From Shigella phage ESh28, in sequence record ON528738: a DNA stretch of 64,000 nucleotides, one strand, 5' to 3'. The notes under the pieces were generated by a model, which searched no databases, was not told where the DNA came from, and saw only the letters and a list, made by a program, of their open reading frames with translations. Positions 18,704 to 34,282 of this stretch are shown here, one piece after another. Each line of letters opens with the position of its first letter. The stretch's first letter is position 1. The translations under genes were made by a program, and so were the position numbers.

Positions 18704-18737
18704 TTTACAGAAGGGTAGTAGTGTGATACTATTACCC
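18704..18737 (+). promoter_or_regulatory. early-type promoter with -10 enclosed by an inverted repeat
   Basis: GTTTAC 18704-18709; TACTAT 18727-18732; inverted repeat GGGTAGT(18713-19)/ATTACCC(18731-37). Confidence 0.45.
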
Positions 18738-18841
18738 TATCAAAACTAATGGAGAAAAGAAAATGTTCGCACCTTATATTATGGCAGCAGTTATGTTGGT
18801 CTGTTTATATCTTTTGATTAAAGCTTGCTAAGGAGAATAAA

Positions 18842-19084
18842 ATGAGATTACAACGCCAGAGCATCAAAGATTCAGAAGTTAGAGGTAAATGGTATTTTAA
18901 TATCATCGGTAAAGATTCTGAACTTGTTGAAAAAGCTGAACACCTTTTACGTGGCATGGGATGGGAAGATGAATGTGATGGGTGTCCGCTTTATGAAGAC
19001 GGTGAAAGCGCAGGATTTTGGATTTATCACTCTGACGTCGATCAGTTTAAAGCTGATTGGAAAATTGTGAAAAAGTCTATTTGA
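18842..19084 (+). CDS. hypothetical protein (80 aa)
   Basis: ATG with AGGAGA SD. Confidence 0.45.
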   Translation: MRLQRQSIKDSEVRGKWYFNIIGKDSELVEKAEHLLRGMGWEDECDGCPLYEDGESAGFWIYHSDVDQFKADWKIVKKSI

Positions 19085-19094
19085 GGAAAATAAT

Positions 19095-19454
19095 ATGTCC
19101 GATATTCATGTAACCGGAATTACCCAAGTAAGAATTCGTTGCCAACTTAAAACTGCACCCGGGATGGCTTATATTAATTTATCACATGACCTAGATTCTC
19201 GCGAAAGTCTGTTAACTGGTGTAATTACGTTTTACACTGGAATCGGCGGAAACGAATTTACTGTAGGCGAGATTGTTGGTCATAAATTAAAAGTTCAGAA
19301 GAACGTGTTAGAACTTTTTAATGACCTTTATGATGATAGCGATGAAGTTTTTGATGAAATCGCACAAGCAGTTAACAAAGGAATGGTAACTTTAGTTAAA
19401 ATGATTAAAGATAGCGGATTTGCTTCTGGCCCCTTTCAGTGGGAGGTAATATGA
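19095..19454 (+). CDS. hypothetical protein (119 aa)
   Basis: ATG with GAGGA SD. Confidence 0.5.
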   Translation: MSDIHVTGITQVRIRCQLKTAPGMAYINLSHDLDSRESLLTGVITFYTGIGGNEFTVGEIVGHKLKVQKNVLELFNDLYDDSDEVFDEIAQAVNKGMVTLVKMIKDSGFASGPFQWEVI

Positions 19455-19696
19455 TTTTTGTATTTGAATTTATGAATGATGAATTCGATTATGCAATTTT
19501 TAACGCATTGCATAATCCTGATTTAAGTGAATTTAACGAAATGTTTTCTGACGCTTTGAGCATGTCAGAAGAATACTGTGGAGAATGTCAACGTGTTTGT
19601 GTGACAGTTTTTGAAAACAAAGAAAAGACGTATGAAGAATTATTCTTTGATGCTAATAAAGCCACTGAATGGTTTATTGAAAGGGGTTTTGCGTAA
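19451..19696 (+). CDS. hypothetical protein (81 aa)
   Basis: ATG 19451 with GGGAGG SD; track start 19439 is GTG. Confidence 0.45.
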
Positions 19697-20277
19697 TGAT
19701 TAAATTGGTATTCGCTTATTCTCCAACTAAAACGGTCGAAGGCTTTAATGAATTAGCATTCGGTTTAGGTGATGGTTTACCATGGGGACGAATTAAAAAG
19801 GACCTCCAGAATTTTAAAGCTCGTACCGAAGGTACAATTATGATTATGGGTGCTAAAACGTTCCAGTCATTATCTACATTACTTCCCGGTCGTAGCCATA
19901 TTGTGGTGTGTGACCTTGAGCGTGATTATCCTGTAACTAAAGACGGCGATTTAGCACATTTCTATATTACTTGGGAGCAATATATAACTTACATTTCTGG
20001 CGGCGAAATTCAAGTGTCAAGCCCTAATGTACCATTCGAGACTATGCTTGACCAGAATTCTAAAGTAAGTGTAATTGGCGGGCCTGCTCTGTTATATGCT
20101 GCGTTACCTTATGCAGATGAAGTAGTTGTTTCTCGCATCGTTAAAAGGCATCGTGTTAATTCAACGGTTCAATTAGACGCAAGTTTTCTTGATGATATAA
20201 GCAAGCGTGAAATGGTTGAAACGCATTGGTATAAAATAGATGAAGTAACAACCCTTACGGAATCAGTATATAAATGA
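19696..20277 (+). CDS. frd: dihydrofolate reductase
   Basis: 193 aa; C-terminus ...[19 protein letters not shown] as recalled for T4 Frd. Confidence 0.85.
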
Positions 20278-20480
20278 GCAATAAATTAAAAGTTAAGGAT
20301 GTTCCTAATGCTATGGCCCTTTTTATTTGTAGGCAGATGCATCAAGGGCCTATGACACCAAAACAATATCTTAAAGGTGAGCGTTCTTTAGGATTTACTC
20401 GCAAAGCAAAACAAATGGTTAAATTAGGATATAAGCCTAACTTTGCCAAATATCCTTCTACATATTCTTGGATGAACTAA
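20274..20480 (+). CDS. hypothetical basic 68-aa protein located between frd and td
   Basis: ATG overlaps frd stop (ATGA); its TAA overlaps td ATG (TAATG); Lys-rich; no family recognised. Confidence 0.45.
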
Positions 20481-21340
20481 TGAAACAATACCAATTTTTA
20501 ATTAAAGATATCCTGGAAAATGGCTACAAAACCGATGACCGAACAGGCACAGGAACAATTGCTTTGTTCGGTACTAAATTACGCTGGGATTTAACTAAAG
20601 GTTTTCCTGCAGTAACAACTAAGAAGCTCGCCTGGAAAGCTTGCATTGCTGAGCTAATATGGTTTTTATCGGGAAGCACAAATGTCAATGATTTGCGATT
20701 AATTCAACATGATTCGTTAATCCAAGGCAAAACAGTTTGGGATGAAAATTACGAAAATCAAGCAAAAGATTTAGGATACCATAGCGGTGAACTTGGTCCA
20801 ATTTATGGAAAACAGTGGCGTGATTTTGGTGGTGTAGACCAAATTATAGAAGTTATTGATCGTATTAAAAAACTGCCAAATGATAGGCGTCAAATTGTTT
20901 CAGCATGGAATCCAGCTGAACTCAAGCAGATGGCATTACCACCTTGTCATATGTTCTATCAATTTAATGTTCGTAATGGATACCTTGACCTTCAGTGGTA
21001 TCAACGATCAGTAGATGTTTTCCTCGGTCTTCCATTTAATATTGCATCATATGCTGCGTTAGTTCATATTGTAGCTAAGATATGTAATCTTATTCCGGGA
21101 GATTTGATATTTTCTGGCGGTAATACTCATATCTATATGAATCACGTAGAACAATGTAAAGAAATTTTGCGTCGTGAACCTATGGATTTATGCGAATTAC
21201 AATTAAAATTCCCAGATGAATTTGATGAATGGGACACAGAATCACAGGTATTTTGGTTGAGTCAATTCGCAAAGCCGCATAATTTTGTTCTTAACGACTA
21301 TGTATCTCACCCGCCAATTAAAGGAAAGATGGCGGTATAA
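20480..21340 (+). CDS. td: thymidylate synthase, uninterrupted (no intron)
   Basis: 286 aa from ATG 20480 ([31 protein letters not shown]...); continuous ORF; track start 20468 is TTG. Confidence 0.9.
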
Positions 21341-21360
21341 TTTTATTATTGCGAGGATTT

Positions 21361-21624
21361 ATGATTTTACGATTTAAAGATACTTCTGGTGCAGTTCTTT
21401 TTACACTTCCTAATCCAAGTGAGCTAGAAGTTCCAGGACCAAATCAGCCTATTATCATTTATGGCAAAAAATATTATACTCATAAAATGACTCGTGAGTA
21501 TTTTGATAATAAAATTTCTACAGTTAAAACTTCTTCTGATTGTTACTATGATATTACTGTTTTAACGGAAAAACAATATGACGAATTATCACCGCGCGGG
21601 CCGTCTATGCCAGGTAGTGAATAA
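21361..21624 (+). CDS. hypothetical protein (87 aa)
   Basis: ATG 21361 with GAGGA SD; track start 21349 is TTG. Confidence 0.45.
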
Positions 21625-33126: not shown

Positions 33127-33375
33127 ATGATTAAACAATTACAACACGCTCTTGAACTGCAACGAAACGCATGGAATAATGGTCACGAAAACTATGGCGC
33201 ATCTATTGATGTTGAAGCCGAAGCTCTTGAAATCCTGCGTTATTTCAAACATCTGAATCCTGCTCAAACTGCATTAGCTGCTGAGCTTCAGGAAAAAGAT
33301 GAACTTAAGTATGCTAAGCCTCTGGCTTCTGCTGCACGAAAAGCAGTTCGTCACTTTGTGGTAACACTGAAGTAA
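33127..33375 (+). CDS. rIII: rIII lysis-inhibition accessory protein
   Basis: 82 aa, MIKQLQHALELQRNAWNNGHENYGASIDVEAEALEILRYF; recalled T4 rIII. Confidence 0.8.
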   Translation: MIKQLQHALELQRNAWNNGHENYGASIDVEAEALEILRYFKHLNPAQTALAAELQEKDELKYAKPLASAARKAVRHFVVTLK

Positions 33376-33620
33376 TTTATTGGAGATTCACTGCCTTAGT
33401 GTGAGCTAAAATCGAGGAGCCATCGAACTGTCTGATTAATGATTTGCGAATCATTATAGTTTTAAGACCCCGGCAGTTTTACGGTGTACCTCTTGAATGT
33501 GAATGATGACGGGTTTATGGTTATCCTGGTCGTTAAATATCCAAAAACCTATGTTCCCCTTGAGGGCTTGCGCAGGCAATGCCAATAAGTCCTGCATTTT
33601 CATTTAAAAGAGAATTTATA

Positions 33621-33797
33621 ATGGCAAAACAAGCTAAAGCAAAGAAAGCAGTTGAAAAGAAAGTTGGTGATTCTAAACGCGCTGGCTACAAGCGTGGGTC
33701 GAACTCTCGTATCAATCAAACTGTTGAGAAGATCATGCGCCGAGCACGTGCGGTTCTTCGAGATGATGCTTCTCGTTTTGGTAAGCAGAAAGCATAA
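33621..33797 (+). CDS. hypothetical small basic protein (58 aa)
   Basis: MAKQAKAKKAVEKKVGDSKRAGYKRGS...; followed by strong terminator; track start 33579 is an upstream ATG without SD. Confidence 0.4.
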   Translation: MAKQAKAKKAVEKKVGDSKRAGYKRGSNSRINQTVEKIMRRARAVLRDDASRFGKQKA

Positions 33798-33802
33798 GTT
33801 GA

Positions 33803-33826
33803 GGACTCCTTCGGGAGTCCTTTTTT
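33803..33826 (+). terminator. intrinsic terminator (UUCG tetraloop)
   Basis: GGACTCC-TTCG-GGAGTCC followed by TTTTTT. Confidence 0.75.
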
Positions 33827-33850
33827 ATTTTCCAAAGATTGCATAAAGTT

Positions 33851-33880
33851 GTTTACAGTATGGTTCCTTTGTGATAGTAT
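33851..33880 (+). promoter_or_regulatory. early-type promoter
   Basis: GTTTAC 33851-33856; -10-like TAGTAT 33875-33880; imperfect inverted repeat TCCTTTGTG/CACAAACAAAGGA reaches the SD. Confidence 0.45.
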
Positions 33881-33907
33881 TATCTTACACAAACAAAGGA
33901 GAATAAA

Positions 33908-34240
33908 ATGAAAACGATTAATCTGAACGCTGCAGTTAAAACTAAATGCTTCAATGGTAAATATGATGAAACTATGTGGTTCTTAATGGCAGTTGAAGGT
34001 GATATTATTGAAGTAGAAACAACAGAAGGTATGGGAACAGATTTCACCTTTACAATTCAAGTTCATAATTTCTTTACTGGTTGGATTTATGAATTGAATA
34101 CAGTAATCGTTGGAAAAATTGAACAAAATGAATTAGGTGAATGGTATTATGTTACAGCTCGCCAACGTGCCGAACGCTTAATTGAGAAGATGAAAAAAGT
34201 TGGTAAACTTGACATGCAGCATTGGAAAGTAGTAAAATAA
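33908..34240 (+). CDS. hypothetical protein (110 aa)
   Basis: ATG with AAGGAG SD. Confidence 0.5.
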   Translation: MKTINLNAAVKTKCFNGKYDETMWFLMAVEGDIIEVETTEGMGTDFTFTIQVHNFFTGWIYELNTVIVGKIEQNELGEWYYVTARQRAERLIEKMKKVGKLDMQHWKVVK

Positions 34241-34242
34241 TT

Positions 34243-34282
34243 GTTTACTTTGGTACAGGATATGATATTATATACCTGTACC
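34243..34282 (+). promoter_or_regulatory. early-type promoter with -10 enclosed by a perfect 8-bp inverted repeat
   Basis: GTTTAC 34243-34248; TATTAT 34266-34271; GGTACAGG(34252-59)/CCTGTACC(34275-82). Confidence 0.5.

Follow-up and report, generated by a model that had tools for sequence, protein, structure and literature searches.

The stretch considered here is a window of 64,000 nucleotides from Shigella phage ESh28 (sequence record ON528738), a segment of a Tequatrovirus (T4-like) genome, in which positions 28000-36000 match many Tequatrovirus genomes, that of Escherichia phage a15 among them, at 97.8% identity across the whole of this region. Comparison with T4 (NC_000866) and Pfam matches place the region of interest in the T4 early region from gene 32 (17012-17920) to gene 30.7 (34309-34674), the + strand of the window being the early (minus) strand of T4. 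Four early promoters in this region, at 18703, 30309, 33851, and 34243, have the -10 box inside an inverted repeat. This layout, GTTTAC followed by a left arm, the -10, and a right arm, had been proposed in an initial annotation of the window, and both the layout and its coordinates hold at the four sites, apart from the start of the first, where the -35 begins at 18703 and not at 18704. All four are T4-type promoters of the form GTTTAC-N17/18-TAnnAT with a TG extension. An AT-rich tract (aaaactttcaaaaagta, caaagcaatttaaa, gcataaagtt, and gtagtaaaataatt) lies directly 5' of each -35 box, and the Shine-Dalgarno (SD) sequence and ATG of the downstream open reading frame (ORF) are 18-32 nt past each -10.

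The first promoter (18703..18732, on the + strand, as are the other promoters and hairpins of the window described here and the terminator at 33801..33830) has its -35, GTTTAC, at 18703-18708, an N18 spacer, a TGTGA extension, and the -10 TACTAT at 18727-18732. It lies between a frd.2-like ORF (FRD2, 18338-18703), the stop codon of which (18701-18703) overlaps the -35, and DUF5417/frd.1 (18842-19084). The core arms of its hairpin (18712..18738) are those first annotated, GGGTAGT (18713-18719) and ATTACCC (18731-18737), and can be extended to AGGGTAGTAGT/ACTATTACCCT, which is an 11 bp stem with one G.U pair and the loop GTGAT. The -10 is in the 3' arm, the hairpin ends at approximately +1, and the SD GGAG (18751-18754) is left free. 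The second promoter (30309..30338; -35 at 30309-30314, -10 TATTAT at 30333-30338) is between cd.3 (30032-30307) and the next ORF and corresponds to the early promoter annotated in T4 between cd.2 and cd.3. Its hairpin (30320..30347), with arms GGTAGAG(TT) at 30320-30326 and (AG)CTCTACC at 30341-30347, is followed by an A-rich leader, the SD GAGG (30357-30360), and an ATG at 30369.

In the case of gene 30.8 (33908-34240, from the ATG at 33908 to the end of the stop codon at 34240), the promoter (33851..33880; -35 at 33851-33856, -10 TAGTAT at 33875-33880) carries a hairpin (33864..33901) that the initial annotation had called imperfect. The arms, (T)TCCTTTGT at 33865-33872 and ACAAAGGA(G) at 33893-33900, are instead a perfect 8 bp repeat, and the right arm, as had been missed, is the SD AAGGAG (33896-33901) of 30.8. 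The promoter of gene 30.7 (34243..34271; -35 at 34243-34248, -10 TATTAT at 34266-34271) has a hairpin (34251..34283) with the arms (T)GGTACAGG at 34252-34259 and CCTGTACC(G) at 34275-34282; here the SD GGAG (34298-34301) and the ATG at 34309 are outside the hairpin and free. Across the four sites the stems are 8-11 bp, with minimum free energies of the sense RNA of -15.9, -16.3, -12.1, and -16.1 kcal/mol and corresponding z-scores of -4.75, -5.5, -2.1, and -4.2.

A similar arrangement is found at alc (27008..27068), where the early promoter has the -10 TACAGT at 27032-27037, the arms are CCTCGTGTT (27019-27027) and AACATGAGG (27052-27060), and the SD GAGG is within the 3' arm. A near-identical 55-nt copy of this promoter, hairpin, and SD is present 5' of the alt.-3 homologue (42807..42861), with arms CCTCATGTT (42818-42826) and AACATGAGG (42851-42859). 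The two, 27008-27062 and 42807-42861, are a direct repeat with two differences, 15.8 kb apart, each holding a complete promoter, hairpin, and SD, and one of the differences turns a G.U pair of the alc copy into A-U. The hairpins thus fall into two classes. In class A (33851, 27008, and 42807) the SD is contained in the 3' arm, while class B hairpins (18703, 30309, and 34243) enclose the -10 and extend 4-17 nt past it, to approximately the start site, leaving the SD free.

A search of the window for GTTTAC-N15-19-TANNAT, of the kind the initial annotation had suggested, gives nine matches against 1.23 expected. This enrichment is seen only for the T4-specific GTTTAC pattern, a generic sigma-70 consensus scan of the window yielding none over shuffled sequence (64 vs 68.6). 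Slight relaxation of the pattern gives 11 convincing + strand early promoters, at 1323, 1669, 4129, 14692, 17993, 18703, 27008, 30309, 33851, 34243, and 42807. In most early promoters a motif of the type CTATCAA, CTACCAA, or GTACCA recurs 5-12 nt past the -10, around the presumed start site (e.g. 18733-18742, 30341-30350, 1353-1362). It is kept even where the 5' arm has been lost, as at 26276 in locus L015 of the relatives, and may represent a discriminator or initially transcribed element that is conserved among T4-type early promoters.

Six of the 11 window promoters have a stem of at least 9 bp, with no more than one G.U, that encloses the -10 by a 5' arm lying upstream of it and a 3' arm at or past it. 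Among 1006 random TANNAT hexamers taken from the window the rate is 1.0% (binomial P about 4e-10), and none of 2000 shuffles of the spacer and downstream sequence reaches the observed stem count. The initial annotation had named equal frequency around random AT-rich hexamers in this genome as the finding that would count against it, and the frequencies are far from equal. When the promoters of the window and its relatives are reduced to 56 non-redundant families, 23 (41%) have such a stem, against 1.5% when left halves are joined to the right halves of other promoters. Each promoter thus has arms matched to one another, and these are not a product of the consensus. An unbiased scan of 85 nt to either side found 25 stems running from a 5' arm in the -35/-10 spacer to a 3' arm at or past the -10, 14 wholly upstream of the -35, which are terminator-like, and three downstream. 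The hairpins are position-locked to the -35/-10 spacer and the -10.

It is scarcely credible that a dimeric regulator uses these repeats as operators, or that they arise by chance from the early-promoter consensus. There are two features that such explanations could draw upon: an outer GGTA...TACC is common to three of the four sites, and part of the consensus, TGTGATA / TATTATA, is weakly self-complementary through G.U pairs. The TACC, however, belongs to the motif recurring 3' of the -10, the arms differ between sites and between lineages, and the spacing from GGTA to TACC is unequal (19, 24, and 27 nt). A palindromic operator for a common repressor is rejected on these differences of half-site sequence and spacing, on the failure of swapped halves to pair, and on the G.U bias of the mismatches described below, while the swapped-half and random-hexamer controls refute a chance origin. 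The statement that each site has different arm sequences is accordingly to be kept for the promoter-specific arms and given up for the outer GGTA...TACC; the case made from it against one operator protein is borne out by the arms, the spacing, and the swapped halves.

The nature of the pairing points to RNA. Internal mismatches in the hairpins are G.T in 19 cases and A.C in five (P = 0.007), and for 30 of 40 hairpins the sense RNA gives a more stable fold than does the antisense, as also at three of the four sites described above; antisense-strand RNA as the acting form is rejected. The 5' arm is always in the -35/-10 spacer and is therefore absent from the promoter's own RNA. All 26 hairpin promoters have, no more than 45 nt upstream of the -35, the end of a sense ORF that is at least 40 codons long, as against 16 of 32 hairpin-less promoters (Fisher P = 1e-5). 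Promoters with no abutting sense ORF carry no embedded hairpin, for example 14692, which follows tail-fibre genes on the opposite strand, and 1323 and 17993, which follow canonical terminators. The G.U bias, the stability of the sense strand, and the linkage to an abutting ORF fit a structure that would act on sense read-through RNA, and argue against an operator or a cruciform. The initial annotation had suggested an RNA-level function on read-through transcripts, which gains support from all of these and from the compensatory changes that follow.

The promoter at 14692-14760, on the rnh side (ATTTAC...TATAAT), has a stem of only 6 bp around the -10 (AGATTT/AAATCT). On a longer upstream RNA, occlusion of its SD is nonetheless predicted (0.43 falling to 0.03), but the upstream genes are on the opposite strand.

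Orthologous promoters were compared in T4, two further Tequatroviruses, two Mosigviruses, and one Klebsiella Jiaodavirus, together with loci found with Alc as anchor (20, from IMG/VR) or with Frd.1 as anchor (25, from metagenomes), the comparison extending to approximately 60 loci; these anchors were used instead of gp30.8, for which the IMG/VR scan gave only nine loci. The pairing between spacer and SD at the alc promoter is kept with widely differing arms: CCTCGTGTT/AACATGAGG, ATCCTCATCAG/CTGATGAGGAT, ATCCTCATTTTGTTG/CAACAAAATGAGGAT, ATCTCCGTTT/AAACGGAGAT, AACCTCTCATTTT/AAAATGAGAGGTT, and TCCCATTTTGTT/AACAAAATGGGG. Double-sided changes are present at 10 of the 15 pairs of the alc alignment, in which 77.6% of cells pair, compared with 31-55% in slid controls, and none of 500 shuffles equals this. 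The SD variants GAGG, GGAG, and GGGG are paired with the matching CCTC, CTCC, and CCCC. RNAalifold, hampered by a 3-nt shift of the T4 group, recovers only seven of the approximately 15 pairs.

At the cd.3/cd.2 promoter (30309) the arms are GGTAGAGTT/AGCTCTACC in T4, TGGTGGAGTT/AACTCTACCA in Mosigvirus, and TGGTAGGACT/AGTCCTACCA in the related locus L029, with two double compensations between T4 and L029. The arms of the 30.7 promoter (34243), GGTACAGG/CCTGTACC, are kept in T4 and Mosigvirus around a variable loop, with G.U in one variant, and in other lineages are replaced by unrelated class B stems (GCTGATTGAGTGT/ACACTCAATCAGC or TTGGGTGGT/ACCACCCAA) or by class A stems that pair with the SD. 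There are at least seven distinct arm pairs at the frd.1 promoter (the 18703 type), in one of which a change of the -10 from TACTAT to TAGTAT is offset by G>C in the spacer. At these four orthologous promoters, then, the arms are replaced or compensated and the predicted pairing is kept. Taken together, the compensatory changes, the G.U bias, and the restriction to promoters open to read-through from an abutting gene indicate, on comparison of the loci, that the stem-loops are under selection as sense-strand RNA structures.

There are several indications that the promoters move with their surroundings. The 18703 cassette is ahead of a 22-codon ORF in the window and in T4, but is directly ahead of frd.1 in TH09. 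This ORF (18763-18831), situated between the 18703 promoter and frd.1, encodes the hydrophobic peptide MFAPYIMAAVMLVCLYLLIKAC and has a good SD (GGAG, 18751-18754); T4 and three other loci have it with 100% conservation, and it is unannotated in the T4 RefSeq. Between the cd.3/cd.2 early promoter and cd.2 there is an ORF of 175 amino acids (30369-30896) with no Pfam match, found in several close relatives and lacking in T4, in which cd.2 comes directly after the promoter; it looks like a cassette insertion at the promoter and leader. The hairpin GGTAGGACT/AGTCCTACC is found at the cd.3-junction promoter of L029 (13738-13790) and at the alc promoter of two other loci, L026 and L033 (approximately 9943-10003), where it substitutes for the SD-sequestering stem. 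The presence of this hairpin at both junctions suggests that promoter cassettes move between loci.

Such movement could be taken to mean that the inverted repeats act on DNA, as hairpins, cruciforms, or protein-recognised linkers for the recombination that shuffles promoter and ORF cassettes, with no role in RNA. Cassettes do move, as at 18703, 30309, the alc duplicate, and the two loci with GGTAGGACT/AGTCCTACC, and the authors who described comparable elements in other phages speculate on a DNA-binding protein. Homologous recombination, however, depends on shared sequence and has no need of self-complementarity, and it is in the arms that the cassettes have least in common; stems of 7-11 bp are poor cruciforms; and compensatory changes that preserve pairing at fixed loci would not be expected of a recombination linker. 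Together with the excess of G.T over A.C and the gap in stability between sense and antisense, which indicate RNA, these points make a purely DNA-level role very unlikely.

The abstract of Repoila et al. 1994 reportedly speaks of an early promoter "with an overlapping inverted repeat". As summarised by Arbiol et al., that work placed elements of this kind on T4 early promoters, as AT-rich stem-loops at T-even IP loci (PMC2839356). The architecture, though the initial annotation had not recognised it as such, is already published as the promoter early stem-loop (PeSL) cassettes of T4-type phages (Arbiol 2010, PMC2839356; Comeau 2014, PMC4122927), in which an AT-rich tract and a sigma-70-type early promoter, with a stem-loop that lies between -35 and -10 or overlaps the -10, are followed by an SD and start codon, as here. 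PeSLs likewise occupy tight intergenic gaps in early variable regions and are tied to gene insertion or replacement, and the variable ORFs and indels associated with them are seen here in the 175-amino-acid ORF, the joining of the 18703 cassette to different genes, and the 27008/42807 duplicate. Recombination from one PeSL cassette to another reportedly also gives rise to mini-circles or deletions. They are present in the PST/T4 pair, with the promoter consensus TTTACW-N17-TAYWAT (PMC4122927), which matches the sites described here. The stems of RB49 and phi1 differ in being of the G-run/C-run type, while those of the window are AU/GU-rich and promoter-specific. In the available parts of the PeSL literature the stem-loops are treated as terminators and recombination linkers, and these parts contain no report of covariation, of a sense-strand G.U bias, of an SD-sequestering subclass, or of a strict link to an abutting ORF. 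Reviews of T4, including PMC3014915, do not mention early-promoter hairpins. The comparative evidence of selection on RNA structure may be new, as may the SD-sequestering subclass of early promoters and the strict requirement for an upstream gene that abuts the promoter.

For class A there is a close parallel in the T4 genes e, soc, 49, and I-TevI, where a promoter is inside a hairpin, the SD is sequestered, and the long read-through RNA is untranslatable, whereas the promoter-proximal RNA is translated (PMC3014915). There, as at 33851, 27008, and 42807, the 5' strand to which the SD pairs is upstream of the internal promoter. The SD is in the 3' arm at 33851, where ACAAAGGA covers AAGGAG, and at 27008 and 42807, but not at 18703, 30309, or 34243. 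The internal promoter initiates 3' of the 5' arm at all of the sites, assuming a transcription start site (TSS) approximately 7 nt past the -10. With this assumed TSS, on which the values depend, the class A SD is predicted to have an accessibility of 0.74-0.88 on RNA started at the promoter itself but of 0.02-0.03 on read-through RNA, the values for 30.8 (33851) being 0.88 and 0.03. The T4 cases differ in having late promoters (TATAAATA) and silencing early read-through RNA, whereas the promoters here are of the early GTTTAC/TAnnAT type, so that the gating would favour immediate-early, promoter-proximal expression.

Promoter identity, the hairpins, their non-random occurrence, their conservation with compensatory change, the sense-strand bias, and the linkage to an abutting upstream ORF are thus features of these loci, and the reading that probably accounts for them is that the cassettes are the T-even form of the PeSL, in which the hairpin marks non-local transcripts, class A imposing a translational block and class B insulating adjacent early units. 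A strong sigma-70-type early promoter would be squeezed into a gap of approximately 60 nt between co-oriented early genes, with the 5' arm of the hairpin encoded in its spacer. The local transcript, starting approximately 7 nt past the -10, would lack the 5' arm and have an open A-rich leader, while RNA started upstream would hold both arms and fold. Because only read-through RNA would hold both arms, the hairpin would mark transcripts of non-local origin. In class A (30.8, alc, and the 42807 copy), with the SD in the 3' arm, the predicted accessibilities suggest that read-through RNA would go untranslated and that expression of the gene would depend essentially on its own early promoter. In class B (18703, 30309, and 34243) the most likely role, which we infer from their position, would be insulation, by attenuated read-through and/or as a barrier to 3' exonucleases for the upstream cistron. 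Among the RNA-level roles put forward (processing, stability, attenuation, and translation), that of the SD-sequestering class is the only one settled, and this by the logic of its putative pairing.

Several observations weigh against this interpretation. About half of the early promoters have no hairpin, some of them despite an abutting upstream ORF, and phylogenetic independence is incomplete for the counts of mismatch types and of families. At frd.1 the single-register consensus gives 67% pairing, against 69% for a slide of -1; two registers coexist there, and the consensus was for this reason replaced by per-sequence stems. A search of the literature yielded no T4 5'-end (TSS) or 3'-end transcriptome. 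The class B hairpins cause no fall in the predicted accessibility of the SD and may raise it, the change to read-through RNA taking the value from 0.51 to 0.83 at 18703 and from 0.22 to 0.74 at 34243. Lastly, there is no U-tract 3' of any of 16 class B stems, the next 8 nt containing 0-3 T and the tails being A-rich, and a terminator scan that calls the hairpins at 17943-17961 and 33801-33822 calls none of the four hairpins described above.

The last two points bear directly upon the literal "promoter-terminator" reading of the PeSL, by which the class B hairpins would be bona fide transcription terminators. The phi1 PeSL stem-loop did reduce lacZ expression as the rrnB T1 terminator does (PMC2839356), and canonical terminators precede other promoters of the window (1323, 17993, and 33851). 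That ahead of 33851 is a CUUCGG-loop hairpin (33801-33822) with a T-run (33801..33830), approximately 20 nt 5' of the promoter. These terminators make insulation from upstream transcription a recurring theme, and the terminator/promoter composites (17943-18022, 33801-33880) resemble the hairpins described here in that a hairpin at the end of a transcription unit directly adjoins the next early promoter. The canonical terminators are, however, upstream of the -35 and have a T-run, while the hairpins here overlap the promoter core without one, and the AU/GU-rich T4 stems are unlike the G4/C4 stems of RB49 and phi1. Without a U-tract, classical termination is doubtful, and it is improbable that class B hairpins are terminators in the literal sense. 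As canonical intrinsic terminators, with a GC-rich hairpin and a direct U-run, they are rejected.

Two of the terminator-promoter composites, 1273-1352 and 17943-18022, have the common leader TTTTTTCACAAAACGGTTTAC and the common motif TACTATACAACTATC after the -10, while their terminator stems are unlike (GGGAGAGCC/GGCTCTCCC and GGGGACC/GGTCCCC). These have the layout of the PST/T4 PeSLs with the stem-loop just 5' of the promoter.

The accessibility values raise another alternative, that the class B hairpins help the downstream gene. After cleavage by RNase E in the AU-rich UP/-35 region, a 5'-terminal stem-loop would stabilise the processed mRNA, and the hairpin may also sequester promoter-derived sequence and so keep the SD accessible on read-through RNA. 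The unchanged or higher accessibility predicted at 18703 and 34243 is in keeping with this, as are the absence of a U-tract and the position of the hairpin, approximately 22-26 nt upstream of the AUG and beyond the ribosome footprint. Those accessibilities nonetheless hinge on the assumed TSS, and class A and class B interchange at the orthologous 30.7 and alc promoters, which would be odd if their effects were opposite. Furthermore, the reduction of lacZ by the phi1 stem-loop, the sole experiment on a PeSL stem-loop, was a lowering of downstream reporter expression (PMC2839356). A helping role for class B therefore seems unlikely, and insulation of adjacent early units is preferred.

It is possible, though somewhat doubtful, that the hairpins embedded in promoters serve early transcription in the Tevenvirinae generally as a selected "transcript-origin discriminator", present at approximately 45% of the early promoters that abut an upstream gene, with class B as the second arm of the same system and not as terminators or recombination linkers. 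If this is true, translation of alc, 30.8, and alt.-3 would be tied to their own immediate-early promoters, and there would be a previously unrecognised post-transcriptional layer to the distinction between immediate-early and delayed-early expression. On the comparative evidence, the emphasis for PeSLs shifts from recombination linkers and terminators to the post-transcriptional sorting of read-through from locally initiated early mRNAs. Were it confirmed, this would matter for the engineering of T4-like phages, as insertion of a payload at these junctions would alter promoter and RNA structure together, and it would explain how early genes such as alc can be under promoter-specific control within a dense array of co-oriented strong promoters.

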